NCBI GenBank assembly: GCA_035559995.1 | Contig: DATMAM010000040.1 | Location: 197,452 to 261,451 of the forward strand | Direction of reading: 5' to 3' | DNA length: 64,000 bases | Source of the DNA: Candidatus Acidiferrales bacterium | Lineage (GTDB): Bacteria > Desulfobacterota > Binatia > UBA9968 | In this document: positions 25,191-64,000 of the stretch, piece by piece | How positions within the stretch are numbered: position 1 is the first letter of the stretch | How the letters are laid out: each line of letters opens with the position of its first letter | Position numbers and translations under genes: made by a program | Notes under the pieces: generated by a model | Seen by the model: only the letters and a program-made list of their open reading frames with translations | What the model was told of the DNA's origin: nothing | Database searches by the model: none

Positions 25191-25228
25191 CTTCCGCCGC
25201 GGCGGCCGTTAATCAGCGATAGCCACAT

Positions 25229-25302
25229 GGCGGTGTAGCTCAGTTGGTCAGAGCACGCGGCTCATATCCGCGGAGTCGACAGTTCGAGTCTGTCCACCGC
25301 CA
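25229..25302 (+). tRNA. tRNA-Met (anticodon CAT; elongator or Ile2-lysidine type)
   Basis: GGCGGTG...CACCGCC acceptor, anticodon loop CTCATAT, T-loop TTCGAGT; no encoded CCA; not initiator (1:72 paired, no GGG/CCC anticodon stem). Confidence 0.85.
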
Positions 25303-26444
25303 TCAATTTTTTCCTTTGATTCTCGCTCACTTACGCTGATCCCCCGCGCGAGATCCGCCAACGCTATCATGTCGTTTTTCGTCAGCCGCTGGGAGGATTC
25401 GGCGTCCGATTGGTATCCAAAATTGGCATCCACGCCTCCGAGATTCTGGACCGCCGAGCGCATTCGTTCCCACACGACGCGGGTGTACTTAGTCGTTGTC
25501 GCGAGGCTCTTGTGCCTGAGCAGGTGCATCATGGCGACCGGATCCCTGACCGACCTGGCCACCTCGTTGCAGAAATAGTCCCGGAGATCCTTCGGCACGA
25601 GCTTGATTCCGGTGAGTTTCTGGATCCGCTTGAACATCCAGCTTCGCCGGTACTGCTTCTTCCCTGTCTTGGGGTTCGGGAAAAGATACTCACTTTCCGG
25701 GAATCGCTTCATCTGCTCAGCGATGATCGGCCTTAGCACGGGCGCGATCGGCAAGAGATTGTAACTATCTTCCGTTTTCGTGCCACGTACGACGAGCCAA
25801 TTCCCCTTGGGGTCGATATCGATCTTGAGCACGCGGTTGGTTTCGTCCTTTCGAAGGCCGGTAAACCGCAGGAAGTCAAAGTACGCGCGATCATTGCCGT
25901 CCAGCGAAGCAGACGCCCGCTCGACGTCGTCCGGATCAAGCGGTGGCTTCACGACCTTTCGGTTCTTGATGAGAGAGAGATCCGCCCGCTCTACGGGATT
26001 CTCGCTCACCAGCCCTTCGCCCTTCGCCCAGTTGAACATCGACCTCAAATCGGTGACATAGTGCCAGATCGTCTGGTTGGTGACCTTGCGATCCTTGCGC
26101 TCCTTCTGCTTACGAATGAACCGCTCAACGTCTTTGTGCGTGATCGAATCAGCCAGGCTCTGCGCGCCGAAGAACGGGATCATGAAACGTTGAAAATTCC
26201 ACCTAAGAGCGTCCACCCTCCATTCCGATCTTCCTCGGAGCGCGCTCTCCACCAGGTACTGCGCGACCACCCGCTCGAATGCGTTCGGCGGAATCTTGGG
26301 CTTTGAGTCGAGCTCGTCGCAGAACTTCCTGTACGCCTTCTCAGCCTCGTCCCGTGTCTCCCAGGCGAAGCGCGCGTAGCGCTTCCCGGCTCGGTAAACC
26401 CGAAATCCCCACTTGCCCCGATTGCATCGATATTCGACTCCCAC
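25248..26444 (-). CDS. int: tyrosine-type site-specific integrase
   Basis: N-terminal AP2-like arm-binding domain (GKWGFRVYRAGKRYARFAWETRDEAEKAY), catalytic R..HLLRH..Y (HLLRHKSLATTTKYTRV); 3' end runs into tRNA-Met (att overlap). Confidence 0.9.
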   Translation of the reverse strand: MGVEYRCNRGKWGFRVYRAGKRYARFAWETRDEAEKAYRKFCDELDSKPKIPPNAFERVVAQYLVESALRGRSEWRVDALRWNFQRFMIPFFGAQSLADSITHKDVERFIRKQKERKDRKVTNQTIWHYVTDLRSMFNWAKGEGLVSENPVERADLSLIKNRKVVKPPLDPDDVERASASLDGNDRAYFDFLRFTGLRKDETNRVLKIDIDPKGNWLVVRGTKTEDSYNLLPIAPVLRPIIAEQMKRFPESEYLFPNPKTGKKQYRRSWMFKRIQKLTGIKLVPKDLRDYFCNEVARSVRDPVAMMHLLRHKSLATTTKYTRVVWERMRSAVQNLGGVDANFGYQSDAESSQRLTKNDMIALADLARGISVSERESKEKIDGGGQTRTVDSADMSRVL

Positions 26445-38981: not shown

Positions 38982-39182
38982 TCAGTCTTGACGCTTGATC
39001 ACCTCCCTTCTGTCAAGGTCATTGACTGGACCCACCCCGACCTGGGCGACGGTCTTGCAAATCCAGCAGATATAGAAGGCCGGCCAGCGCGCTACGTGCG
39101 CCATCAACAAGCTCGTGGAGGATCCGCACGCCGGGCATTTACTTGCGTGCGCGACTGATATCTCAAAGCGCGATCTCCTCAT
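38982..39182 (-). CDS. small zinc-ribbon phage protein
   Basis: CPACG...CWIC. Confidence 0.35.
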   Translation of the reverse strand: MRRSRFEISVAHASKCPACGSSTSLLMAHVARWPAFYICWICKTVAQVGVGPVNDLDRREVIKRQD

Positions 39183-39805
39183 CTGCCTCCTCCTTGTTTC
39201 TGCTCGCCCGCTTCGGGGTGGCGCGCGCTTGTCATGCGCCGCACATAATCTTCCTGCGTGCGGCTCTCGATTGCCTTCTTGCAGTACCCGCTCCTGATTG
39301 CCTTGATGGCCTTCCCGCCGTGGATATCCAGGGCAACGGTCATGAGAGAGCCGACGGCGGTGCCGGTCCGGCCATGGCCGCCGATGCAGAAAAAGACCAC
39401 GTTCTTGTACCCGTTCTGTTTCAAGAGCTGAAAGAAATCCGCCCAGAACTGCCGGCCCGCGTTGATCACTCCCATGTCCGGCCAGTCGATGATGATCTCC
39501 TCCACGCGGTCCTGCTCGAAATGCCTCTGCAGGGAAGCCCAGCGGCGACCGGCCTTGAGGATCTTGTTCCGGCTGTAAACGCTGTATCCGGTGAGATTCA
39601 CCAAGAGATCGGCCTTCACGCGCGCGAGCTCTTCATAGCTGACCTTCGACTTCGAGGCGCCGTAAATTTGCACGCCTTCCAGGCTGCAGATGAGAGTCGG
39701 CGCGTGCCGGCACTGAACCCACCCGCCATCGTGCTTGCCGTTCTTTTCCTTCTTCTTAAACTCTCCGAGTTCTCCGAAATAATCTTCGATTGCCATGACA
39801 CTCAC
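39179..39805 (-). CDS. protein-tyrosine/dual-specificity phosphatase-fold protein (CX5R P-loop)
   Basis: P-loop VVFFCIGGHGRTGT (HCx5R-type) and upstream IDWPDMG (WPD-loop-like general acid). Confidence 0.6.
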   Translation of the reverse strand: MSVMAIEDYFGELGEFKKKEKNGKHDGGWVQCRHAPTLICSLEGVQIYGASKSKVSYEELARVKADLLVNLTGYSVYSRNKILKAGRRWASLQRHFEQDRVEEIIIDWPDMGVINAGRQFWADFFQLLKQNGYKNVVFFCIGGHGRTGTAVGSLMTVALDIHGGKAIKAIRSGYCKKAIESRTQEDYVRRMTSARHPEAGEQKQGGGR

Positions 39806-39987: not shown

Positions 39988-40002
39988 CGTCGCTCCTCTT
40001 TC

Positions 40003-42093
40003 TCATGTGAGATAGTTTTTAAGCGGCACCACTTTGTGCTCGCCCAGATACACGCCGTCTTTCTGGACTTCCAAGGCAGCATAGACATCGCCGCTGCCTG
40101 AGAAACTGGGAATCGGCTTCGCTTTCGCGATCGCTTCCTGTAGTTCCTTCGTGACGGGGACGTTCATGGTCTGATAGTGAACCCCGCCTTCCGTCTTGAT
40201 CTGCACGTGGAGCATGTTGCTCTTGATCGTTGCGGCCGCGGCGGTCACCTTTTCCTTGCCGAGCGTTGTGGTGTCCAGGTCGGGAATGATCCACGTGTCT
40301 CCCTTCACGCCCTTGCCTGGCTTGCCGAGCTCGCTCTGCAGATGCTTGAACACTTCCGTTCTGGCTTCGTCGGTCACCTCCTTTTTCATGATTTCCAAGT
40401 ACAGCTTGGCGACACCCCATAGCCCCGCGCAGCGCCGTTGGCTGCCGTCGGGGAAGGTCACGAACCAAGGCTTGCCGGAAGGCATGTAAACAATCTTGAA
40501 CGGCCCGTACTCGCGCGGAGTGTCTTTGCTTGGGAGTTGGTCGGTCGACGCGCGCCCACGCTTCGTTTTGGCGCTCTCACTCGCCTTTTCGACTTCGGCC
40601 ATGAGCCCGTTGAACTCCGCCGGCGCCGTGCTGATCTGATAGACGTGGTGCATGATCGCGATCAGCGGCGAGGCGGGAGATTGCGCGGCGATATCGAACC
40701 AACCGGCGTAGATGAATTTGTTAAACCACCACCCGTTGTTGTGCGCGCAGTTGATCATCACGTTCAAAGCCTCGTTCACGTTCTTTAGGGCTTCCGGAGT
40801 TTTCTCGCGCACGAACCTCACGGTCGCGTTCCACAAATCGGCGGTGGCATCAGAGCACTTGCCCCAGGCCTTCCCGCCGTACCCCGGCCGCCACCCCTTC
40901 TCGTAAAATTTCTTGCGGATCTCGTTGAACTTCTGCACGCTCTCCCTGAGATTCGCCCATGCCTTGTCGTACACCTGATGCCGTGCGAGACCGTGTTTCT
41001 GCTTGTGACGGGCCTCACCGAAGCACGCCGCAAAGCCGAGTTTCAAGGCGAGCATCACGGCGACACCATAGAGGCGGCTTTCCTGCTTGCCGAAGTACGC
41101 TGAGTTGTGGAGAGCGCCGAGCACCAGCATCGCGGCCTCGCGGTAGCCAATCTGGTAGGTCACGCCGTAGGCGATTCCTTTGAGCACTTCCTCCACATCC
41201 TTTTGCGGGATTTCGACGGGAATCTTTTTCAGAGTCTCGCCGACCTTGACCTTGGAGCACATCGCCGGCGTCGTGACATAGGGAATGCCGTTATCCACGC
41301 AGTGCACGCCCCAGTGGGATGAGAGCGCGCCGCCAGGATGGACGACGACCGTGCCGGCCTTGAACTTTGCGCAGATCTCTTTCCACTCGAGCAGATCGCC
41401 GCGCGGCTTTTCGATCTTCGTCACCGTGACCGTCTTAGGAACGAAATCCGGACCCAACCCACTCACCTTCGGGCCGGAGCGAAGCTGGACGAGATAGATC
41501 GCGTCGCGCTTTTCGTTCTGGACGAATTCAAGATACGGCGCGTCGCCTTCCTTCACGCCCGCTTCGGTGAGAATCGCACGCTCGACCTTCTCGTCGTGAG
41601 CAAGAGGCGATTTGTCCGTGGTGCGGATGCTCGCAGCGGCCTTGCCACCCGTCGCGCCGTCATTGCCTTGGCCGACGGTGAGGACACCCGTTGTCCAGAT
41701 CGCGTTATGGCTGGACTTGATGTAGGGCATGAGCAGCATCTCCGCTTTGGGATCCGCCTTGCGCGCTTCCTTCCAGACCTTGAGCGCTTCCGCCTTGTTG
41801 TTGACCGGCCTGGAGTCCACAAACCCGTGCGCCGGCTTGACCGGGCACGGTCGCGCCATCGTGTTCGGTCCGATGGTCAGATAGGGATCCTCAAAATCGC
41901 TTTCCTCGCTCACCAGGCGGAACTGGAGAGTCCGGACCGCGTCCTCCAGGAATTTGAAATTTGCCTTATACTTCTGCAGGGCAACCAAGCCCTTTGCCTT
42001 TTGCGTTCGGGGTTCCACTGTCACGTCTCCTTTCTTCTGTTCGATTCCCAGTTCTTCGAAGGCATCCTGTACGTTCAGCACCATGAATTGCAT
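40003..42093 (-). CDS. large phage protein with PEP-utilising-enzyme-like phosphohistidine (mobile) domain motif
   Basis: VVVHPGGALSSHWGVHCVDNGIPYVTT parallels PEP-utiliser signature GG.TSH..I.ARE.GIPAVVG with identical SH-x8-GIP spacing; ~270 aa N-terminal and ~370 aa C-terminal regions, size like PEP synthase/rifampin-phosphotransferase-type enzymes. Confidence 0.45.
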   Translation of the reverse strand: MQFMVLNVQDAFEELGIEQKKGDVTVEPRTQKAKGLVALQKYKANFKFLEDAVRTLQFRLVSEESDFEDPYLTIGPNTMARPCPVKPAHGFVDSRPVNNKAEALKVWKEARKADPKAEMLLMPYIKSSHNAIWTTGVLTVGQGNDGATGGKAAASIRTTDKSPLAHDEKVERAILTEAGVKEGDAPYLEFVQNEKRDAIYLVQLRSGPKVSGLGPDFVPKTVTVTKIEKPRGDLLEWKEICAKFKAGTVVVHPGGALSSHWGVHCVDNGIPYVTTPAMCSKVKVGETLKKIPVEIPQKDVEEVLKGIAYGVTYQIGYREAAMLVLGALHNSAYFGKQESRLYGVAVMLALKLGFAACFGEARHKQKHGLARHQVYDKAWANLRESVQKFNEIRKKFYEKGWRPGYGGKAWGKCSDATADLWNATVRFVREKTPEALKNVNEALNVMINCAHNNGWWFNKFIYAGWFDIAAQSPASPLIAIMHHVYQISTAPAEFNGLMAEVEKASESAKTKRGRASTDQLPSKDTPREYGPFKIVYMPSGKPWFVTFPDGSQRRCAGLWGVAKLYLEIMKKEVTDEARTEVFKHLQSELGKPGKGVKGDTWIIPDLDTTTLGKEKVTAAAATIKSNMLHVQIKTEGGVHYQTMNVPVTKELQEAIAKAKPIPSFSGSGDVYAALEVQKDGVYLGEHKVVPLKNYLT

Positions 42094-42123
42094 CGCTCAC
42101 CTCCGGTGCAGACGTCTGCAAAC

Positions 42124-42318
42124 CTAACAATCAAGCCGCCATCGCTTGCCGGCCGCGCGCTCGAGGAGCTCGCGCCGTTTGCTACGGTCCAGAGATCGGA
42201 GCCGGCGCGCAACGCGATCGCGGTAGTAGGTGGTGGTGTTGCCGTGCCGATTATTGATGCCAGCGACCCACGTTTTCGCATTGAGGACGCGGAAGGCGTC
42301 GCGGATTTTAGTTTTCAT
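42124..42318 (-). CDS. hypothetical small basic phage protein
   Basis: 64 aa. Confidence 0.3.
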   Translation of the reverse strand: MKTKIRDAFRVLNAKTWVAGINNRHGNTTTYYRDRVARRLRSLDRSKRRELLERAAGKRWRLDC

Positions 42319-42340
42319 TTTTGTGTCTCCTTTTGGTTGG

Positions 42341-42661
42341 TCACGCTGCCTTGCGCAGCTTCTCGATGTGCTTGCACTCTTCGTGGCGAAAGACGTAGGA
42401 CGGGCAACTGCAGACCCAAACCTTGCCGCGAACGCTGACCCGGTAAGTTTTGTCGGGATCGCTGAAGGACCGCACGGTGAACTGCCGGTCCCATTTCGTT
42501 TTTGGCTTGGCCTGCGGGACCGGCGCCTTGCTGCCGGAGCAAACCTTGCACGAGGGGACGTGAAGGTTCTTAAACCACTCGATCGTTTCCGGGCTCAGTT
42601 TTTCCTGTGCCTGCTGTGTCTTTAGCTTCTCAGCGGTTTTGCATCCTGATTTGAACTTCAT
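42341..42661 (-). CDS. SWIM zinc-finger protein
   Basis: C-terminal CxCx(n)CxH (VWVCSCPSYVFRHEECKHI); start at ATG 42661 with GAAGGAGA RBS. Confidence 0.5.
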   Translation of the reverse strand: MKFKSGCKTAEKLKTQQAQEKLSPETIEWFKNLHVPSCKVCSGSKAPVPQAKPKTKWDRQFTVRSFSDPDKTYRVSVRGKVWVCSCPSYVFRHEECKHIEKLRKAA

Positions 42662-43278
42662 TTGTTTCCGTCTCCTTCGTTTGTTCTGGAGCTGCGCGCG
42701 CGCTCGCCCGTTTCGGCCTGACGCGCACGCGCTCGCCCATTCCTTTTGCTTCGTGCCGTAGATGATCATTCAATCGTTTGCCGTTATCGCAGGTGATTGC
42801 CGACCTAGTGATTGTTCACCACCCAGCCACCTCCTCGGTGGACCTGCCCGCGACTGCGCGAGCCGGATCTGCGTCTTTGTTTTTGCCGGCGCATGGTCCG
42901 TAGGCTTATCAGGCAGTACAGACCAGCGGCGCCGACGTTTTCATTTCGCAGGGTGACTTGGTTCCATTTCCCTGCGCCCCGTTGGTAAGCGGAAAAGGTT
43001 TTGAAGGGAAAACTAAGGTGCGGATTCTAAAATAAGGTGCGTGCTTTACGTGCGGGGTTTACTTGGCGTGGGTTAGATTCAAGTGTTCGAGGATGCGTCC
43101 GTCAAAAAACCTTGCTCTTTTTTTTCCTTTTTCCTAATGCCTTCCGTGGCTTATCAGGCAAATGGAAGGCGACCTAGTGTTGACGGTCAATCTATTCAGG
43201 CCTACTGGCCAAGAATGCTAGAAGAGGAAAAAGGCCTTGAATCTGTCAGGAATTGCCTATGTCAAAGAACCAATAAGA

Positions 43279-43308
43279 ATCCTATGGGATTCCTATGGAA
43301 TTGTCAAG
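43279..43308 (-). promoter_or_regulatory. consensus sigma70 promoter (TTGACA-18-TAGGAT) driving leftward early/middle operon
   Basis: Minus-strand TTGACAattccataggaatcccaTAGGAT; ~600-nt leader precedes first gene (SWIM protein). Confidence 0.5.
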
Positions 43309-43395
43309 GGGCAAAGACGTTTTTTTGGACCGAAAAAGCCTGAAAAGATAAGGATTTTTTGGGATTTTAGGCGAGGGCCTTGGAGCAAGTCGGTT

Positions 43396-44049
43396 TTACA
43401 GTAGGCTTTCGTCTTTGGCTGGAGCGTTGGCGGCGCCGGGCGTTTCCTGGGCGTGTTTTTTCTTGGCGCGTTTGCTGTCGACAGATCCGGCCTTGGCGCG
43501 CTCGACGTGTTGGTAGGTGAGGCGCAGTTCGTCCGCGCGGGCCTTGTAAATGTCCTTGAACTGATCGGTCTTGTTTTCGATGTGGGAGGAGACCTTGTTG
43601 AAATGGTCCCAACCCCGGCCTTGCTGTTTTCCTTTGAGCGTGTGCTTGTCCAGGGCGTAGTCCGGCACCTCGAGCTTCAGATTCTTCTGGATCCGCTCCT
43701 GGTGGACGACGGTCAAGAAATTATCGGCGAGGCGGCTCTTCTCGGACCGGCACATGGCGAGGATGGCATTCGATAAACAGAGCAGCTCGCTGGCTTGGCC
43801 CGGCCGCGCGACCATTTCGAAGTACATCTCCTTCAGGCTGTGAACTAGCACGATGAGCTGGGGATTGGCCGGGCCGATGTCTTCGCAGGCAATCACTTGG
43901 AGGCGGTGCCACAGGTATTGCGGATAGACTTCTTCGAGCTCCAGGGCCCAGAACATCGCTTCCTCTTCCATGCCCCGGCGGATCGATTTCTGCAGGGCTG
44001 ACATGGCTTCACTCAGATGATAGCCGTTTCGTTTGGTCCGTAGGTCCAT
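43396..44049 (-). CDS. hypothetical 217-aa helical protein, moron-like (own promoter)
   Basis: Good RBS AAGGAA; preceded by consensus promoter in AT-rich spacer; no recognisable domain. Confidence 0.5.
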   Translation of the reverse strand: MDLRTKRNGYHLSEAMSALQKSIRRGMEEEAMFWALELEEVYPQYLWHRLQVIACEDIGPANPQLIVLVHSLKEMYFEMVARPGQASELLCLSNAILAMCRSEKSRLADNFLTVVHQERIQKNLKLEVPDYALDKHTLKGKQQGRGWDHFNKVSSHIENKTDQFKDIYKARADELRLTYQHVERAKAGSVDSKRAKKKHAQETPGAANAPAKDESLL

Positions 44050-44087
44050 AAAAAGAAGTTCCTTTCCGGTGCGGAAATTTTAAGGTT

Positions 44088-44116
44088 ATCCTATAACTTT
44101 TTTATATAACGGTCAA
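44088..44116 (-). promoter_or_regulatory. consensus sigma70 promoter TTGACC-17-TAGGAT upstream of 217-aa gene
   Basis: Minus-strand TTGACCgttatataaaaaagttaTAGGAT in 95-bp AT-rich spacer. Confidence 0.55.
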
Positions 44117-44145
44117 GGAAAAAAGCTGGCAGGCGACGGGCTGAC

Positions 44146-45105
44146 TTAGGTGGCGTGGCCTTTGCCTTGCTGGCGTAGCAGGTCCTGGGCGTATGAGGCG
44201 ATCCCTGCGTTGGGATGGATCTTCGGCACCCAGCCGAGCAGGTACTTGGCGAGCGTGTGGTCGGCGAAGCAGTGGCGGATATCTCCGGGGCGCTTCTCGC
44301 CCGTATAGCGCGGGGTGATCTTCCCGTCGACCAGGTGCATCGAGAGCATGTTGGCGACAGCCTGCACGGGTAAGGGGATCCCGGTCCCGATGTTGATTGC
44401 GGCTTTGGGCCGGAAGAAGAGGGCGGCCTCGATGGCGGCCGCGACGTCTGAGACGTGGATGAAATCGCGGATCTGAAGACCGTCCTCGTAGATGACCGGC
44501 TGCTCGCCGGCCAGGAGCCTCGAGGCAAAGATCGCAACGACTCCCGTTTCGGCATTGGTGAGAGACTGTCCAGGTCCGTAGGTGTTGAACAGGCGAAGCG
44601 CCGTGACCGGGATGCCGTAGATCTCCCCGTTGATCCGGCAGAGCTGCTCGGTGTCGTACTTGGTCATGCCGTAAACCGAGGCCGGCCGGCACGCGTGCTC
44701 TTCCCTGACGCCGCGCGTTTCAAACCCTTCCCCGTAGACCGACATACTCGAAGCAACAATGATGTGCTGCACGCCGCCGGCGGCAACGATCGCCTGCATC
44801 AAAACGGCCGTTGCATAGCTGTTGGCCAGGACGAAGCGCGCGGGATCCTTTGCACTTTCCGAGACGCTCACACCGGCGGCCAGGTGGATGACGACGTCGC
44901 AGCCGCGGCAACACTCGAGTGTGGCTTCGTAGTTTTCAATCCGGTTAAGGAACACCAACCTAGCCCCGTCGACCATGGTATCCGGAGCTGGACCGTGCAC
45001 AACGGGCTCGAAGCAGTCCTGCACGACCACCTCGTGCTTTTTACCAAGCAGCCGCACAACGTGGCGCCCGATGAATCCGGCGCCTCCCGTAACGAGAATT
45101 CTCAT
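44146..45105 (-). CDS. NAD-dependent epimerase/dehydratase family protein (sugar-nucleotide epimerase-like)
   Basis: MRILVTGGAGFIG Rossmann start, SSMSVYG and catalytic YxxxK-type region; start ATG 45105 with GGGGGA RBS, overlaps upstream stop (ATGA). Confidence 0.8.
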   Translation of the reverse strand: MRILVTGGAGFIGRHVVRLLGKKHEVVVQDCFEPVVHGPAPDTMVDGARLVFLNRIENYEATLECCRGCDVVIHLAAGVSVSESAKDPARFVLANSYATAVLMQAIVAAGGVQHIIVASSMSVYGEGFETRGVREEHACRPASVYGMTKYDTEQLCRINGEIYGIPVTALRLFNTYGPGQSLTNAETGVVAIFASRLLAGEQPVIYEDGLQIRDFIHVSDVAAAIEAALFFRPKAAINIGTGIPLPVQAVANMLSMHLVDGKITPRYTGEKRPGDIRHCFADHTLAKYLLGWVPKIHPNAGIASYAQDLLRQQGKGHAT

Positions 45106-45851
45106 AGATCCCCCAATTCCAGTTTTTGCCGGCGGGCGACGTCCTTCACAACCATGCGCGTCACGCCTCCGGAGACCTGCTCCTGGAGGTAAGCTCCCCA
45201 CTTCCGCTTCAGGTAGTGGCGGTCCGCGCTCCAGCTCCCAGCCGAGATCGCGTGGCGGTTCCCGCCGGCGTTGGTCATGATCTGGTGCTCGAACATGAAG
45301 CGCGTATCCTGCCAGACGATACGGTCCTTGAGAAGTGCCTGCAGGGTGAGGTCGGCATCGGTGTTGTGGCTTAGCGCGGTGTCGGGGAGGAGCCGCCTGC
45401 CGACGAATCCCAAGCAGGGACCGTTTGCCTTGAGGAACCCGAAAGGGTCATAAGGAAAGAAATTGAGAATGTTCGGCGTGATCGCAAAGGAGAAGAGGCT
45501 CACGCCGATCCCCTCCGCGATCGAGGCAGCGTTGAAGATAATCCGGTAAACGGCGACCGGATCCGTGATCACACGCGCCTTGCGCCCGACCAGGCAGATC
45601 ACCCTCGAGACATCATCGTCGAAGATGACAACGCACTTCTCTTTCCGGTGCTCGAGGATCCAGCGCCGGACGCGCGAGACGCCGGCGACATCGTCCGGGT
45701 GGGTGGTAAGCGCGGCGCGAAACTCGCGGTAATCTTCCGCTTCGCTTTCGGCAACGCAGACCTCGGCCGATGGGACCAGGCGAAACGCGCGCCGGCACGA
45801 CTCCACGCGCTTTCGGCTGGGAATGACGATCCGGAGATCCTTCTCCGTCAC
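45102..45851 (-). CDS. putative GT-A-fold glycosyltransferase, paralog 1
   Basis: RIVIPSRKRVESC...VIFDDDV (DxD-like)...; 40-50% identical to adjacent paralog; GTG start overlapping paralog-2 stop (GTGA). Confidence 0.4.
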   Translation of the reverse strand: MTEKDLRIVIPSRKRVESCRRAFRLVPSAEVCVAESEAEDYREFRAALTTHPDDVAGVSRVRRWILEHRKEKCVVIFDDDVSRVICLVGRKARVITDPVAVYRIIFNAASIAEGIGVSLFSFAITPNILNFFPYDPFGFLKANGPCLGFVGRRLLPDTALSHNTDADLTLQALLKDRIVWQDTRFMFEHQIMTNAGGNRHAISAGSWSADRHYLKRKWGAYLQEQVSGGVTRMVVKDVARRQKLELGDL

Positions 45852-46591
45852 AACTCCAGATCCTGCTGGCGGGAAACACGTACTTTGAGGGACACCACCC
45901 GTTTCTGGTACCCGATCCCGATGTACTGTCCCCACTTCTGCTTTAGGTGCTTGAACTCGCGCTGGGTGTTCTCGACGCTTCTCGAGACCGTGTTGCCGCC
46001 GGCTTTGGTGATGAAGTTATGCTCGGCGGCGAAGCGAGAGTCCTGCCACACGATCCGCTCCTTGAGGAGCGCCTGCAAAGAGAGATCCACATCATCGAAT
46101 TGGGTCACCTCGGGATCATAGCGGATTTTTCGATCGAGAATCCCAAGAAGCGCCCCCTCGAGTCGGGTGAGTTGAAACGGCTTGTGCGGGCGGAACTTCC
46201 GCACATCGTCCTGGAAGGGATTGAAGGAGAAGCAACTGATGCCGAGCTCCTCGCAGATGTTCGCTGAGTTGAGGAGGATCCGCTCGATCGCGTGCGGATC
46301 CACGATCCGGCGGGGTCGGAAGCCGACCACGCAGTACAGGCTCCTCACGTCATCGTTGCACTGCACAATCACGCGCTCGTTGAAGTGATCGAGAATCCAC
46401 TGGCGAAGCCGCCCAAGACCGAAAATATCGTTGGGATGGGGAACGATCTTCGCCCCGATGTCCTTGTAATCCCCGAGCTCTTCTTCCGCGACGCACACCA
46501 CGGGATTTTTGAACAGCTTGACCGTCTGCGCGCAGCTCTCCACGCGCCGGCGGCTCGGTATCACGACGAGCATGTCTTTGGCCTCGATCAC
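45848..46591 (-). CDS. putative GT-A-fold glycosyltransferase, paralog 2
   Basis: MLVVIPSRRRVESC...VIVQCNDDV...; start overlaps ParB-like gene stop. Confidence 0.4.
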   Translation of the reverse strand: MIEAKDMLVVIPSRRRVESCAQTVKLFKNPVVCVAEEELGDYKDIGAKIVPHPNDIFGLGRLRQWILDHFNERVIVQCNDDVRSLYCVVGFRPRRIVDPHAIERILLNSANICEELGISCFSFNPFQDDVRKFRPHKPFQLTRLEGALLGILDRKIRYDPEVTQFDDVDLSLQALLKERIVWQDSRFAAEHNFITKAGGNTVSRSVENTQREFKHLKQKWGQYIGIGYQKRVVSLKVRVSRQQDLEL

Positions 46592-47325
46592 GCAGCGGCA
46601 CCTTTCTTGGCCGGCGTTTTTGCGGCCTGAGCGCGGGCCTCGAGCTCCTTTACCCGCTGCATGTACTTGGACCCGTTGATGACCCGCCCGACACCGATGG
46701 TTTTCTTTCCCACGTATCCCGGGACCTTCACTTTCTGCAGACCGAAATGATCCATCGCGGAAAGAAAGTCCCGGCTGTCCTTAAAAAAGACAACGATGTA
46801 ATCGTAATGCTCGTATGGGAGGAGGTCCATTTCTGGCGGGCCGGGGAGCTCGTCCTCGGGCTCCTCGAATCCGGATAGATGCGAACCATTTTCATCCATT
46901 CCGCCGCGCATCTGAAGATCAGCCTCTTGGCGAAGCGGGGCCATATTCAAGCTGTCGTAGAGGTCGGGCATCTGGCTTTCGAGTTCCTTGAGCAGGTTGC
47001 CCAGGAGCTGCTCGTCCCAGTCGCCCCCGACATTGGGGTTATTCAGCGTGATATTGAGCGCCTTCTCCTTCTCGATCGGAAGGTCCACAACCGAACATGG
47101 CACGGTTTTTTCGCCGCGCGCCTTCAGGATCTTGAAACGCTGGTGGCCGGAAACAAGGTTGCCGGTCCGCTTGTTCCACACGAGCGGCTCCACCAGGTCA
47201 AACTCGGCCAGGGATTGCTCGATGGTTTCGTACTCGTGCTCCCCGGGCTGGAGCTCGCGCCTGGGGTTGTACGGGGCCGGGTTGATCTTGCTCACCGGGA
47301 TATCCTGAAGGTTGATCTTTGCCAT
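46588..47325 (-). CDS. ParB/Srx-fold (ParB-like nuclease domain) protein
   Basis: INPAPYNPRREL...LVSGHQRFKI ParB N-terminal domain signature; acidic C-terminal region. Confidence 0.65.
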   Translation of the reverse strand: MAKINLQDIPVSKINPAPYNPRRELQPGEHEYETIEQSLAEFDLVEPLVWNKRTGNLVSGHQRFKILKARGEKTVPCSVVDLPIEKEKALNITLNNPNVGGDWDEQLLGNLLKELESQMPDLYDSLNMAPLRQEADLQMRGGMDENGSHLSGFEEPEDELPGPPEMDLLPYEHYDYIVVFFKDSRDFLSAMDHFGLQKVKVPGYVGKKTIGVGRVINGSKYMQRVKELEARAQAAKTPAKKGAAA

Positions 47326-47478
47326 GTACCCCCCTACGATTCAGAGTCGTTCAATTCCGCCATAACGGCGTCCACGCCTGGCCCCAGGACAACGATCGCG
47401 GCCTGGTTTGATACGCAGCAACCCCCATGGGGAGATCGTGCCTTAAAAAGCCGCTAATGCGTTTTCTCAGTTTTGGAA

Positions 47479-47823
47479 TCACCGCGCGTGTCGCCCGATC
47501 GCGACGGCAATCTCTGCGGCAAATTGGCCGCAGTTCTGGGTGACGAGCTGCTCGCTTTCCGCGCGGATCCGGTTGACCAGGATCGCTCGATAGGCAGCGG
47601 CGATCAGTCCGCCGGAACGATCCTCGAGGAGCGCGGTCAGCTTTTGCCACCGCTCGGAAAGAATCCTGGCGCAGGCTTGATCCCCTGGCGTTCCCTCTTG
47701 ATCCGCCAACTTCCGAAAGGCGACCAAGTCATCCCCGAGCCTCTGCCCAACAAAGGAGCAGCCGGTGATCCAGACCAAGAATGCGATAATCAAACCAATG
47801 ATGATCCAGTCCCGCATAGTCAC
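47479..47823 (-). CDS. phage lipoprotein, o-spanin-like/lysis-associated
   Basis: Signal peptide with lipobox ITGC; overlaps upstream gene by 4 nt as in spanin pairs. Confidence 0.4.
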   Translation of the reverse strand: MTMRDWIIIGLIIAFLVWITGCSFVGQRLGDDLVAFRKLADQEGTPGDQACARILSERWQKLTALLEDRSGGLIAAAYRAILVNRIRAESEQLVTQNCGQFAAEIAVAIGRHAR

Positions 47824-48041
47824 CTCTGGACAAACTCATCGAACCGATCTTTGAGCTTGTTGTGCTCGGCCCAAAGCCGCTCGATATCCTTGCGAAGATA
47901 CGCTACCTCACCCCCGTTGCCGGCCAATTTCTGCCGGTCGCGGTGAAAGTATTCATTCACGATCTTGAGCACGACGGCGAGGACGCTCGAGATCAGAGCG
48001 ATCACGACCGAAACGTCCTGCCATGTGAGATTCTCAATCAC
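47820..48041 (-). CDS. single-TM coiled-coil lysis protein (i-spanin or holin-like)
   Basis: N-terminal TM VSVVIALISSVLAVVLKIV then charged coiled coil. Confidence 0.4.
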   Translation of the reverse strand: MIENLTWQDVSVVIALISSVLAVVLKIVNEYFHRDRQKLAGNGGEVAYLRKDIERLWAEHNKLKDRFDEFVQR

Positions 48042-48256
48042 TTGGTAAATGCACGCTTGACTTCGTGCATCGCGATGTTCACTTCGGAGCGCGGGACAGC
48101 GCCTTCCTTGAAGATCGCGTACACGTGGGGCCCGGGCTCCTTTGTCGCGACCATGTGCTCGCGCATGTCCTGGAGGTTCTGAAGATGCACGCTGAGCTCG
48201 TTGGTGTCTCGGAAGACCAAAAAGATTCCTTCCTCTCGCGATACGATCTGCATCAC
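48038..48256 (-). CDS. hypothetical phage protein
   Basis: 72 aa. Confidence 0.3.
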   Translation of the reverse strand: MMQIVSREEGIFLVFRDTNELSVHLQNLQDMREHMVATKEPGPHVYAIFKEGAVPRSEVNIAMHEVKRAFTK

Positions 48257-48258
48257 TC

Positions 48259-48735
48259 CTACTGGTAGTATTTCACCAGCACGGGCCGGTTGTGCAGCTC
48301 ATCGACTTTCTCTTTCACCAAGACGCGCTCGCCACAGAAAAAGCGGATCTCGGTGGTCTCCCGGCCGGGCGCCGCGAAGAGCATCATTCCGAGATTCACT
48401 TCGATCGTGTCGCCGTTCTTGTCGGTCAGATAAACACAGCTCGAGGGCACCTGGGCGATCAGCCGCCGCTCACGCTTGTTTTCCTCGGGGCACTGCTCGT
48501 AGTCGGCGCAGAATTCTTCGTGGGATTTAACCCAGGCGTTTATCTCAGCGCCGTGGTCATTCAACCGCCGCACGATCCAATGGCCGTCGGGGAGCTCGAG
48601 GTTTCCCTTTGACGTTCGTGCATAAAACTTCGTGACACCATCGCTCTCAAGGCCGTACACGCCGGCCGGATAGGGAGGCCCGAGCAGCCGCTCAGCCTCA
48701 ACCTTGAACCCGGAATGTTTATGGAAAAATTTCAT
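48259..48735 (-). CDS. hypothetical phage protein
   Basis: 158 aa. Confidence 0.35.
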   Translation of the reverse strand: MKFFHKHSGFKVEAERLLGPPYPAGVYGLESDGVTKFYARTSKGNLELPDGHWIVRRLNDHGAEINAWVKSHEEFCADYEQCPEENKRERRLIAQVPSSCVYLTDKNGDTIEVNLGMMLFAAPGRETTEIRFFCGERVLVKEKVDELHNRPVLVKYYQ

Positions 48736-48779
48736 GCAGGACTTTTACCACAGTTCAGCGCCGTTCGATTCGGGAATTT

Positions 48780-49256
48780 TTAGTTGTCGGCCGCAGCGTA
48801 CTTCAAATTCTGAGCGATCCGGCGCGCCCAGCCGCGCGCATTGTGACCCCAGTTAGAAAGCCGCGTCATGAAATCCAGCCGCTCGGCGAGAAAACGGAGC
48901 AGCGCATCGTTCGGGTCCATCCGATCGTAAGCCACTTGGCTAACCGGACCCCAGTAGCCGTCATCAGCAACTCCGACCGCTCGCTGGAGCATCCGGATCG
49001 CGTTTCCGATCCCGTGGTGAACAGCGGCGTCAAACAGTTGGTAGACAAGCGCATCGTCGAGCTTTGAGGCAACGGGAGCCCAAAAATCGCGCTGGTAGAT
49101 GACCTTTGCCCCGTCGCGCGTGAGATTCTTAATGTCGACGTCAGGATAGGAGCGCTTCGAAATCCCCCAGTTCGTCTCCCCGCCGGGGTCCTCGGGGTCG
49201 TTTGTGTAGCCCCCCTCGTGCCCGAGCGTGCGGTCAAAAGCCGTATCGAAGTCCAT
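48780..49256 (-). CDS. endolysin, glycoside hydrolase family 108 lysozyme-like
   Basis: HEGGYTNDPEDPGGETNWGI GH108 catalytic motif. Confidence 0.8.
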   Translation of the reverse strand: MDFDTAFDRTLGHEGGYTNDPEDPGGETNWGISKRSYPDVDIKNLTRDGAKVIYQRDFWAPVASKLDDALVYQLFDAAVHHGIGNAIRMLQRAVGVADDGYWGPVSQVAYDRMDPNDALLRFLAERLDFMTRLSNWGHNARGWARRIAQNLKYAAADN

Positions 49257-49627
49257 CAGCGTTTTCTCCGATCGAAATCAGGGCGGATCGCCGAAATCGT
49301 CTTGGCGGTGCGATCATCCGAATAATTTTCCTCGAACCGCGCAAGCCCGCACTCACCGGCGCGCAGATAAGCCTCGATCGAGAGAGCCAAAACCTGCCAC
49401 CTGTACTCGAGCATGGCCTGCCAGCCGGAGTAGTGGCGGAACTCCTCGCGTTTGAGGATCGGCATCAAGCATTTGACCAGGCGGTGATCGACCCGGAATC
49501 CGACAGTAATCTTCTCCCCGTTCGACCGCATCACGACGTCATCGCAGCCGTAATCTTTTAAGATTTGCCGGATCTGCTCCTTCGACTTCTTTATCGTCCA
49601 AGGGTTCTCAAATTCTCGCCTGCCCAT
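49256..49627 (-). CDS. hypothetical phage protein
   Basis: 123 aa. Confidence 0.35.
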   Translation of the reverse strand: MGRREFENPWTIKKSKEQIRQILKDYGCDDVVMRSNGEKITVGFRVDHRLVKCLMPILKREEFRHYSGWQAMLEYRWQVLALSIEAYLRAGECGLARFEENYSDDRTAKTISAIRPDFDRRKR

Positions 49628-49628
49628 A

Positions 49629-50000
49629 TCACGATAGGCCGATCACGTTGGTTCCATCACAGTAGACGAGCTTCACCTGGCCGGGCGTGAGCGTCACTCC
49701 GGTGCCGGCGGCAGTCTTCACCGTGATATTAAATCCGCCACCGCTCCCGTGCTCCACGAGGTAGAGCTTCTTGTTGGTTGGGACGATCAAGTTTCTATTG
49801 GCGGTGAGCGTTCCGGAAGTTTTGATGTGCATGTTCTCGAGCGCCTGCGCCGATGTGAGCGTCACGTCAGCCGTACTGATCGGGATGTTCTCGCTATCGC
49901 AGAGCGCTTTGTCGAGCTTGTCGATCGCCTCATTCGCGGTCACGTGTGGATTGTTCTGATTACCGACGAGATGCGTGATGCTCAAATTGGGTGACGGCAT
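49629..50000 (-). CDS. phage tail-fiber-associated small protein
   Basis: 123 aa, Thr/Gly/Asn-rich beta-type composition typical of fiber tips. Confidence 0.35.
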   Translation of the reverse strand: MPSPNLSITHLVGNQNNPHVTANEAIDKLDKALCDSENIPISTADVTLTSAQALENMHIKTSGTLTANRNLIVPTNKKLYLVEHGSGGGFNITVKTAAGTGVTLTPGQVKLVYCDGTNVIGLS

Positions 50001-63697: not shown

Positions 63698-64000
63698 TCA
63701 GACCATCGACGGGAGCTTGAGCACGGCAACCTTAACGTCCGCGTGGCCAACGTCGATGTAGATCATCCCGTCGCTCTGCTGAAATCCGGCCAACGGTGGA
63801 GCGAAGACGGCAAACTCGTTGGCTCCGAGCGAATAGTTTCCCAGATCGCCAGTGCGGTTGAACGCATCGACGACGCTCACGATCTTCGCGTTCTGCGCCG
63901 CGGCGTTGATGTTGTTGAAGATCACGACCTCGCGCCCAGTCGCCTTGAACGCCATCCCGTTCACCGCATCGCCAACGGTGAAACTAAAATCGTGCGCGTT
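63698..64000 (-). CDS. phage structural protein, partial (continues beyond window)
   Basis: ORF 63698..63964 with frame open to window edge. Confidence 0.3.
   Translation of the reverse strand, partial: NAHDFSFTVGDAVNGMAFKATGREVVIFNNINAAAQNAKIVSVVDAFNRTGDLGNYSLGANEFAVFAPPLAGFQQSDGMIYIDVGHADVKVAVLKLPSMV

Follow-up and report, generated by a model that had tools for sequence, protein, structure and literature searches.

What do four translationally coupled genes, for a ParB-like protein, two glycosyltransferases and a sugar-nucleotide epimerase-like enzyme, contribute to the phage that carries them? They lie on the minus strand of the 64,000-nucleotide window (the whole stretch of DNA analysed here), from 47325 to 44146, in the order ParB-like gene, glycosyltransferase paralog 1, paralog 2 and epimerase, and belong to a temperate prophage integrated at tRNA-Met, whose integrase (25248..26444) adjoins that tRNA. 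The first-pass annotation had described them as chained by GTGA and ATGA overlaps beside lysis genes, and both descriptions hold. Read directly, the junctions are ...GCG TGA over GTG ATC (GTGA) between the ParB-like gene and paralog 1, ...TTG TGA over GTG ACG (GTGA) between the paralogs, and ...CTA TGA over ATG AGA (ATGA) between paralog 2 and the epimerase; the cassette sits just downstream of the lysis genes, with small membrane-protein ORFs (47479..48256) and a GH108 endolysin (48780..49256) immediately upstream. The run of three overlaps, the only such run in the prophage, is not statistically striking, because 13 of the 51 same-strand junctions there are 4-nt overlaps; a stronger argument than the run itself is that the overlap of the ParB-like gene with the following glycosyltransferase gene is kept in unrelated phages (L001, L004, L005).

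Both glycosyltransferases belong to the TAGT family (PF20691). They had been described as two paralogous, DxD-containing GT-A proteins of about 248 aa, and paralog 1 (45848..46591, minus strand, 'CNDDV' type) and paralog 2 (45102..45851, minus strand, 'FDDDV' type) have 247 and 249 aa, the start of the latter being the GTG at 45851, set by alignment with paralog 1 (the mechanical ORF list reaches 45935). They are 42% identical over 247 residues (E 2.5e-69), with NDD and DDD, respectively, at the DxD position. When compared with TET/JBP-associated glycosyltransferase families, as the first-pass annotation had suggested, paralogs 1 and 2 score 32.1 and 34.6 bits against PF20691, above its gathering cut-off of 27.5, and match phrog_842 (1.3e-12 and 8.7e-13), annotated as 'beta-glucosyl-HMC-alpha-glucosyltransferase'. 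R14, R16, D80, D81 and D167 are conserved in 22 sequences, the conserved TAGT stretch P12-S13-R14-x-R16 reading S-R-R-R in paralog 1, and the R...DDD motif set described for DNA-modifying phage GT-A enzymes (bioRxiv 10.1101/2023.12.21.572611) is present. Paralog 1, the one of the two that was modelled, is predicted by AlphaFold2 to adopt a GT-A fold (pLDDT 84.6, pTM 0.85); Foldseek matches the model to the GT-A enzymes MpgS, GpgS, TarP and TarS in the PDB and, in BFVD, to TAGT-domain proteins (E ~1e-12, TM 0.7-0.8), among them the beta-glucosyl-HMC-alpha-GT of Klebsiella phage PKO111 (6e-10). Paralog 2 has a separate orthologue group (P0023, P0024, P0026-28; L004 11120-11875; L009 11397-12134), which shows that the duplication is old.

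The last enzyme of the chain (44146..45105, minus strand, 319 aa) starts at the ATG at 45105, the longest ORF reaching 45201. It had been assigned to the NAD-epimerase family, with which its full-length match to PF01370 (6.3e-45), its match to phrog_540 (1.5e-59) and its GGAGFIG (GxxGxxG, 7-13) and YGMTK (YxxxK, 145-149) motifs agree. Its best solved relatives among the extended-SDR nucleotide-sugar 4-epimerase-like enzymes are the UDP-hexose 4-epimerase 4zrm (2e-41), 6wjb and MoeE5. Since it scores below every NCBIfam equivalog cut-off (133 bits against 262.3 for the UDP-glucose 4-epimerase GalE, TIGR01179), we call it an epimerase-like SDR and assign no substrate.

The first gene (46588..47325, minus strand) encodes a ParB-like accessory protein of 245 aa, whose earlier assignment to the ParB/Srx fold is borne out by Pfam ParB_N (28 bits, cut-off 26.3; 2.2e-6, residues 5-84) and phrog_620 (1.2e-31). 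After the ParB/Srx nucleotide-binding domain (~1-120) come a linker that is acidic (~121-165, pI 4.05) and a C-terminal domain that is basic (~166-245, pI 9.7) and bears the conserved PYEHYDY...GRV motif; a Pfam HMM scan detected no HTH DNA-binding domain (HTH_ParB). In the alignment to Spo0J 6sdk, considered for the GERR box only, the box reads GHQR, the last Arg being kept and the Glu and first Arg replaced. Matches of the nucleotide-binding domain to ParB-methyltransferase fusions (2.6e-27 for the N-terminal region of PADLOC MTase_II, 3e-30 for phrog_498 'DNA methyltransferase') are far stronger than its match to generic ParB_N, and a methyltransferase body is present in 33 of the 75 viral relatives. 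This sequence kinship suggests for the ParB-like protein the DNA-directed accessory role that the domain has in those fusions.

These genes belong to a widely conserved module, a point absent from the first-pass annotation. It was found at about 25 independent loci, among them those of 56 cultured lytic Microbacterium phages, and consists of a ParB-like gene with the PYEHYDY C-terminal domain directly upstream of a TAGT gene, usually an MgsA_C-only gene nearby, and a variable sugar-nucleotide enzyme. Wherever a locus found through the ParB C-terminal domain has downstream sequence, TAGT is the next gene; full-length ParB-like homologues precede it in L001, L004, L005, L009, L040, L047, L078, L079 and L087-L100, and as gp85 in KaiHaiDragon. 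The MgsA_C-only gene here (43396..44049, minus strand, 217 aa), also missing from the first description, is a conserved fifth member: homologues accompany ParB-TAGT in L001/2, L004, L009, L040, L078, L083/84 and, as gp89, in KaiHaiDragon, and one is also close to it in 10 of 16 genome loci. Its product matches PF12002 (MgsA_C; 1.3e-10, residues 31-148) and phrog_33349 (2.6e-22) and shares homology with the helical C-terminal portion of RarA/MgsA AAA+ proteins, matching the C-terminal regions of 3ctd, 2r9g and 3pvs (residues 251-359 of the last), while neither Pfam nor comparison with these structural relatives found an AAA+ ATPase domain or P-loop family in its 217 aa. Within the 96 bp that separate the epimerase gene from this one, a consensus scan gives a minus-strand promoter-like site, TTGACC-17-TAGGAT (44088..44116); the count of such sites equals the shuffle expectation, and the site is weak evidence, a lead and no finding. 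The genes that recur beside the module in the genome loci encode terminase, AAA ATPases and the beta clamp of DNA polymerase III.

Among the substrates left open by the first-pass annotation (DNA, virion proteins or host glycans) we infer DNA as the target, and consider it somewhat probable that the cassette is the core of a phage TAGT-type module for the post-replicative glycosylation of phage DNA with a short glycan. The characterised TAGT members that can be cited are DNA glycosyltransferases, the T2/T6 beta-glucosyl-HMC-alpha-GTs (PMC13216743, PMC13390438), and the pairing of a glycosyltransferase with an epimerase next to it has been documented for DNA hypermodification (bioRxiv 10.1101/2023.12.21.572611). 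The basic pI of both transferases (8.9 and 9.3) fits a DNA target and lends it weak support. The SDR enzyme would epimerise a host UDP-sugar to provide the donor, and the two TAGT paralogs could then act in succession, presumably one placing a sugar on a base-linked acceptor and the other extending it by a further sugar, in the manner of T2/T6. We propose that the ParB-like accessory recruits the transferase to double-stranded DNA or keeps it there; it is translationally coupled to TAGT and has a nucleotide-binding domain of the methyltransferase-fusion type. The MgsA_C-only protein could be a second accessory, possibly tying the module to the replisome.

The glycosyltransferase domain of GREB1 is TAGT-related. 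GREB1 is reported to O-GlcNAcylate a protein (PMC7968844), and family membership would then not in itself be proof of a DNA target. The transferases might likewise glycosylate virion proteins or a host or phage DNA-associated protein, with ParB and MgsA_C as targets or scaffolds, an alternative that we judge unlikely. Actinobacteriophage glycosyltransferases have been proposed to modify capsids, although the capsid-candidate genes of cluster O lie inside the structural operon and are unlinked to ParB (PMC4351075), whereas the transferase of our module is invariably coupled to a ParB domain of the type associated with DNA methyltransferases and is often near replication genes. The tailoring enzymes carried by L001 (a methyltransferase, acetyltransferases and a kinase) are typical of glycan decoration and would suit a protein target, as would the failure to find a hydroxylated-base pathway among the early-region ORFs of the window, in KaiHaiDragon or in the genome loci; against it, the best structural matches of the modelled transferase are TAGT proteins, including a DNA-sugar transferase of the T-even type.

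Host glycans, in contrast, have lost ground. That the cassette alters host surface glycans (lysogenic seroconversion), or serves as a prophage defence that glycosylates incoming foreign DNA, would agree with its presence in a temperate element with an integrase beside tRNA-Met and with the match to TarP, a prophage GT-A enzyme acting on teichoic acid, and the idea of prophage glycosyltransferases acting on invading DNA has been raised (bioRxiv 10.1101/2023.12.21.572611). Yet the TarP matches are weak (TM ~0.46, against 0.7-0.8 for TAGT proteins), no flippase- or GtrA/GtrB-type family is among the Pfam matches of the cassette and early region, PADLOC matches only the ParB domain of methyltransferase fusions, and the same module is found in strictly lytic Microbacterium phages that have no integrase or repressor (PMC7302621). 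We regard either role as very improbable.

DNA glycosylation also requires an acceptor. In the window up to 64000, no TET/JBP, thymidylate-synthase-like or C5-methyltransferase family came up when 32 early-region ORFs were scanned with HMMs, in agreement with the earlier remark that no hydroxymethylase is visible; a PHROG match to 'thymidylate synthase' was rejected, the gene being a Cys-phosphatase. The +/-10 kb around the relatives likewise yielded none of these families, save a C5-methyltransferase in L004, and none of them recurs beside the module in at least 3 of 15 genome loci. The complete 53-kb KaiHaiDragon genome has no annotated or detectable dioxygenase, ThyS or methyltransferase. 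To our knowledge, characterised TAGT-type pathways all begin with a hydroxylated pyrimidine; with no hydroxylated base there is no acceptor for known TAGT chemistry. The absence of these families from the scanned ORFs counts against a DNA target, as does the verdict of the authors of the phage glycosyltransferase survey, who consider that contigs with a glycosyltransferase and neither 5mYOX nor ThyS are less likely to be DNA-modifying.

One way out would be that DNA is glycosylated without a 5-hydroxymethyl-pyrimidine of the TET/JBP or thymidylate-synthase type, by a self-sufficient ParB-TAGT-MgsA_C triad that attaches sugar directly to a canonical base or another DNA position, or whose acceptor comes from an enzyme of an unrecognised kind. 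Such a triad is decidedly unlikely in our view, and it is just as doubtful that ParB would be, in a self-contained system of this sort, the DNA-loading partner of a glycosyltransferase and not of a dioxygenase. It would account for the recurrence of the module in very different phages and hosts with the sugar-nucleotide enzyme as the sole variable addition, for the fact that the unrelated phages have nothing in common with this prophage beyond ParB, TAGT x2, the epimerase and MgsA_C, and for the gene content of KaiHaiDragon. Against this, divergent dioxygenases escape PF12851, and thousands of contigs are left without annotation (PMC13229309). The Pfam listing in alignment mode comprises the 25 most frequent families, and the missing enzyme could lie in the head and terminase region of the prophage, past 64000. 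Moreover, we know of no glycosyltransferase that glycosylates an unmodified DNA base.

Sugar-decorated DNA allows phages to escape restriction enzymes and CRISPR nucleases, and the enzymes that make it serve in the mapping of modified bases. The module described here is compact and mobile: a ParB partner, an MgsA_C-only protein, one TAGT or two, and a sugar-nucleotide enzyme that can be swapped. It is spread over many phage lineages that show no recognisable route to a hydroxylated-pyrimidine acceptor. If its target is DNA, there is either an acceptor-forming enzyme still to be discovered or a chemistry of attachment that is new, and ParB-like proteins would partner DNA-modifying enzymes in general, glycosyltransferases now joining methyltransferases and dioxygenases. 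Because the module is carried by 56 cultured Microbacterium phages, the question is directly testable.

The TAGT family, to which the trypanosomatid base-J glucosyltransferase JGT is related as well, has the T2/T6 beta-glucosyl-HMC-alpha-glucosyltransferase as its type, and the paralogs resemble it in family score and, for paralog 1, in having TAGT phage proteins as best structural matches; two successive transferases would fit a mono- then disaccharide scheme similar to that of the gentiobiosyl-hmC of T2/T6. In T-even phages, however, a dCMP hydroxymethylase produces hmC ahead of replication, and the enzyme paired with TAGT is a GT-B alpha- or beta-GT, whereas in our cassette no hydroxymethylase or GT-B enzyme was found, both transferases are of the TAGT type, and the partners are ParB-like and MgsA_C-like. 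The metavirome 'subclass II' clusters (Pyle et al., bioRxiv 10.1101/2023.12.21.572611; Cell Rep 2024) share the adjacency of GT-A and epimerase, with epimerase-dependent activity, frequent ParB-like neighbours and mono- and disaccharides on a DNA base; what defines them is a neighbouring C5-methyltransferase with a 5mYOX (TET-like) dioxygenase, together making 5hmC, both undetected here and beside the relatives examined. Cluster EC Microbacterium phages (Quhwahvirus, e.g., KaiHaiDragon, NC_048020), lytic and with no integrase or repressor (PMC7302621) whereas our prophage is temperate, carry the module as right-arm genes 84-88. KaiHaiDragon has a ParB-like protein with nucleotide-binding and C-terminal domains, a TAGT-like transferase (31% identity), a sugar-nucleotide enzyme and an MgsA_C-like 'AAA-ATPase', but differs in a 76-aa ORF between ParB and the transferase, a single TAGT in the block and a UDP-glucose dehydrogenase-like enzyme in place of the epimerase. 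Small ParB proteins that activate phage thymine dioxygenases on double-stranded DNA (O'Toole et al., PNAS 2026, PMC13229309) are like ours in architecture (nucleotide-binding domain, linker and C-terminal domain, no HTH; 204-240 aa against 245 aa) and are encoded in DNA-hypermodification neighbourhoods as partners of a DNA-modifying enzyme. That enzyme is a 5mYOX dioxygenase, usually accompanied by kinases, amidotransferases and amino-acid:DNA transferases, whereas the translationally coupled partner here is a glycosyltransferase, and no Tet_JBP family that could supply a cognate 5mYOX was found in the 32 early-region ORFs of the window or in the flanks of relatives. The closest kin of the nucleotide-binding domain, at 50-60% identity over ~115 residues, are the phage ParB_N-DNA methyltransferase fusions (phrog_498; PADLOC PDLC03229), in which the domain is fused in cis to a methyltransferase; in our prophage it forms part of a free-standing protein that has a C-terminal domain of its own and is coupled in trans to a glycosyltransferase.

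The four-gene cassette at 44146-47325 (minus strand) is a member of a conserved ParB-TAGT-MgsA_C module, and its most likely function, judging from sequence families and a predicted fold, would be post-replicative glycosylation of phage DNA. Positions 1 to ~25,000 of the window hold host-type ORFs as read by eye, for example a valyl-tRNA synthetase and an EF-G-like protein. A tRNA-Met gene (25228-25304, plus strand) overlapping the 3' end of a tyrosine integrase ORF (25248-26444, minus strand) marks the left boundary of a prophage whose right boundary lies past the window end. From the integrase onward, as far as the window extends, transcription runs almost wholly on the minus strand through gene blocks that are, from right to left, tail (~49.6-64 kb), lysis, cassette and early/replication. 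A megablast of positions 40000-50000 against 50,697 phage records gave no match, and scanning viral contigs with the final complete tail gene of the window found none either. Beyond position 64000, exact matches to window proteins led only to a 14-kb Logan contig, which extends the sequence by about 2.5 kb.

The cassette encodes a ParB-like protein (46588-47325, 245 aa), two glycosyltransferases of the TAGT family, TAGT1 (45848-46591, 247 aa) and TAGT2 (45102-45851, 249 aa counted from the GTG at 45851), and an epimerase (44146-45105, 319 aa counted from the ATG at 45105), all on the minus strand. The first-pass annotation had described four genes chained by stop/start overlaps next to lysis genes, and both parts were borne out: the junctions, read directly, are GTGA, GTGA and ATGA in order, and a GH108 endolysin (48780-49256) and small membrane proteins (47479-48256) lie alongside. 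Since four-base overlaps occur at 13 of the 51 same-strand junctions of the prophage, three in succession are not unlikely; a better sign of functional coupling than this run is that the ParB gene and the first TAGT gene overlap in unrelated phages too (contigs L001, L004 and L005).

TAGT1 and TAGT2 share 42% identity and score 32.1 and 34.6 bits, respectively, against PF20691, 'TET-associated glycosyltransferase' (gathering score 27.5), a family that includes the T2/T6 beta-glucosyl-HMC-alpha-glucosyltransferase, by which a second glucose is added to glucosyl-hmC (PMC13216743, PMC13390438). The AlphaFold2 model of TAGT1 (pLDDT 84.6, pTM 0.85) predicts a GT-A fold. Its matches among solved structures were the GT-A enzymes MpgS, GpgS, AvpGT, WrtF, TarP and TarS, and among viral models TAGT-domain proteins (E about 1e-12, TM 0.7-0.8), with a Klebsiella phage beta-glucosyl-HMC-alpha-glucosyltransferase in their number; generic GT2 proteins reached only TM about 0.5, well under these. 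An Arg motif and an acidic NDD/DDD motif are conserved in the TAGT alignment. The duplication is old, since the paralogs fall in separate orthologue groups, both represented in further phages. The fourth gene encodes an extended SDR with GxxGxxG and YxxxK, nearest to UDP-hexose 4-epimerases yet under every equivalog cut-off. The earlier interpretation, in which two paralogous DxD-containing putative GT-A enzymes act in sugar transfer together with a sugar-nucleotide epimerase/dehydratase, is supported and narrowed to the TAGT family.

The N-terminal domain of the first gene product is of the ParB/Srx type, as had been called (28 bits against Pfam ParB_N, cut-off 26.3), and scores far higher against phage ParB-DNA-methyltransferase fusions (phrog_498, 3e-30; PADLOC MTase_II, 2.6e-27), the ParB domain of these fusions being the only defence-system match returned by PADLOC. 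Of 75 viral proteins related to this domain, 33 are ~400-aa proteins with a [DNS]PP[YFWH] methyltransferase motif and nine share the C-terminal domain of the window protein. That domain is basic (pI 9.7), follows an acidic linker (pI 4.05) and contains a sharply conserved PYEHYDY...GRV motif. No HTH domain was detected in the protein, and the GERR nucleotide box of B. subtilis Spo0J aligns with GHQR.

The fifth member of the module, at 43396-44049, is a 217-aa protein without an ATPase domain, its match to RarA/MgsA being confined to their C-terminal helical part (hereafter MgsA_C-only). By tblastn, the long contigs found with TAGT1 (L001/2, L004 and L005/6) have five genes in common with the prophage, namely a ParB gene directly upstream of TAGT, two TAGT genes in all, an SDR epimerase and an MgsA_C-like gene, and nothing beyond these. 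The ParB protein, and then its C-terminal domain alone as a query that does not depend on TAGT, retrieved five viral contigs (L009, L040, L047, L078 and L079), two more metagenome loci (L083/84) and 16 loci in metagenome-assembled genomes of Chloroflexi, Planctomycetes, Omnitrophota and other phyla. TAGT directly follows the ParB C-terminal domain in all of these loci that have downstream sequence, and most of them, among which are 10 of the 16 genome loci, have an MgsA_C-like gene no more than a few kb away. TAGT1 also matched in 56 cultured, lytic Microbacterium phages. The block in the cultured Microbacterium phage KaiHaiDragon comprises ParB-like gp85, a 76-aa ORF, TAGT-like gp87, UDP-glucose dehydrogenase-like gp88 and an MgsA_C-like 'AAA-ATPase', gp89; the genomic paper on these carrier phages gives the module genes without function (PMC7302621).

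The module varies in its composition. The accompanying sugar enzyme may be an epimerase, a UDP-glucose dehydrogenase, a small cupin, a methyltransferase, acetyltransferases or a nucleotidyltransferase. In L004 (10741-11118) and L005 (10651-11016) a small ORF of 121-125 aa, with no counterpart in the window, lies between both TAGT genes; the L004 copy has weak cupin/JmjC matches (E about 1e-3) and the L005 copy none, and the product may act as a sugar-nucleotide isomerase or epimerase, a minimal dioxygenase being less likely. In L083 (5350-8132) and L084 (1398-4180) the PYEHYDY domain is encoded on its own, by a 68-aa gene flanked by a 182-aa ORF and TAGT; next to it, in divergent orientation, are an MgsA_C-like gene and one for a classical ParB (ParB_N plus HTH_ParB, 349 aa), with an ADP-ribosyltransferase toxin-family gene and a terminase close by. 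The recurrent families among 148 ORFs flanking the module at 15 loci of the genome set (L087-L102) were TAGT (10), MgsA_C (6) and, with three each, terminase, AAA ATPases, DNA polymerase III beta clamp and DUF7192; the beta-clamp and the AAA ATPase genes were each present at 3 of the 15 loci. In L001 (870-2411) a 134-aa ORF and then a gene for a 513-aa AAA protein come after the MgsA_C-like gene. This gene order and the nearby beta-clamp and AAA genes suggest that the MgsA_C-only protein may be part of phage replication or clamp-loading functions.

Known TAGT chemistry requires a hydroxyl group, carried either by a modified pyrimidine or by a sugar that the pyrimidine already bears. The first-pass annotation saw no hydroxymethylase in the window, and indeed no TET/JBP, C5-methyltransferase or thymidylate-synthase family was found among 32 early-region ORFs of the prophage, the head and terminase part of the prophage lying outside the window. 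Within 10 kb on either side of TAGT1 relatives, the only acceptor-forming family was one C5-methyltransferase, 4 kb away in L004, and no dioxygenase or thymidylate-synthase family had three members among the 25 most frequent families listed for the 148 flanking ORFs. Nothing in the complete KaiHaiDragon genome is annotated as TET/JBP, C5-methyltransferase or thymidylate synthase, and for eight of its larger proteins, labelled hypothetical or 'DNA binding', Pfam showed no acceptor-forming family. PF12851 can miss divergent dioxygenases (PMC13229309).

Two neighbouring genes were considered for this role and rejected. The protein at 39179-39805 (minus strand) has as its sole PHROG match phrog_17568, annotated 'thymidylate synthase', a name that looks wrong here: a CIGGHGRTG (CX5R) motif and tyrosine phosphatases as best PDB relatives speak against a thymidylate synthase or hydroxymethylase, and the product is a Cys-based, PTP-like phosphatase. 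The gene before it (40003-42093, minus strand) encodes a 696-aa protein that matched nothing in Pfam, PHROG or PDB by sequence and belongs to an unannotated family of >170 members, mostly from phages and metagenomes and 570-1150 aa long (relatives at L009 15746-18092 and L086 8001-11239). In its AlphaFold2 model (pLDDT 87.6) an ATP-grasp fold at the N-terminus precedes a large helical domain, in which the family has invariant His, Cys and Arg. Because the pair also occurs in phages without TAGT, it was regarded as a separate module and not counted in the cassette. A seven-residue identity (GYGGKAW) between the 696-aa protein (window 40884 region) and KaiHaiDragon gp82 (L080 6150), a 181-aa hypothetical protein three genes upstream of ParB, was absent from the other loci compared and is probably due to chance. 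Between this pair and the MgsA_C-like gene, a 142-aa basic protein (42341-42769, minus strand) with no family match and a homologue in L009 has at its C-terminal end a CxC...CxH pattern (CSCPSYVFRHEECKH), by eye similar to a SWIM-type zinc finger. The following 626 bp (42770-43395) contain only low-scoring plus-strand ORFs of 64 and 86 aa and gave no match in an Rfam scan; on the minus strand, a promoter-like site (43307-43279) shares part of its span with a hairpin of 10 pairs and the T residues that trail it (43296-43273).

The substrate had been left between DNA, virion proteins and host glycans. Host-glycan seroconversion, or a role in prophage defence, is unlikely, because strictly lytic phages carry the module and no flippase- or Gtr-type family was among the Pfam matches of the cassette and early region. 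The lack of an acceptor-forming enzyme in our searches counts against the conventional route, and leaves room for glycosylation of proteins or for a new DNA chemistry; the TAGT family, the fold and the ParB linkage all favour DNA. If DNA is the target, the epimerase would supply the sugar donor, the two TAGTs would add successive sugars, and ParB would serve as a partner directed to DNA; a further accessory role, perhaps with a link to the replisome, would fall to the MgsA_C-only protein.

Phage GT-A enzymes carrying R...DDD motifs, often depending on an adjacent epimerase, have been reported to put mono- and disaccharides on 5hmC, which a methyltransferase and a TET-like enzyme encoded nearby produce; ParB-like genes are mentioned among their neighbours, and ~65% of the glycosyltransferase contigs are without any 5mYOX (TET-like dioxygenase) or ThyS (bioRxiv 10.1101/2023.12.21.572611). 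In the literature searched, we found no description of the ParB-TAGT-MgsA_C triad. According to a 2026 study, small ParB proteins of 204-240 aa, consisting of a nucleotide-binding domain, a linker and a C-terminal domain without HTH, are required activators, on dsDNA, for one subclass of phage thymine dioxygenases (PMC13229309). In architecture the window ParB agrees with these, but the protein to which it is coupled is a glycosyltransferase.
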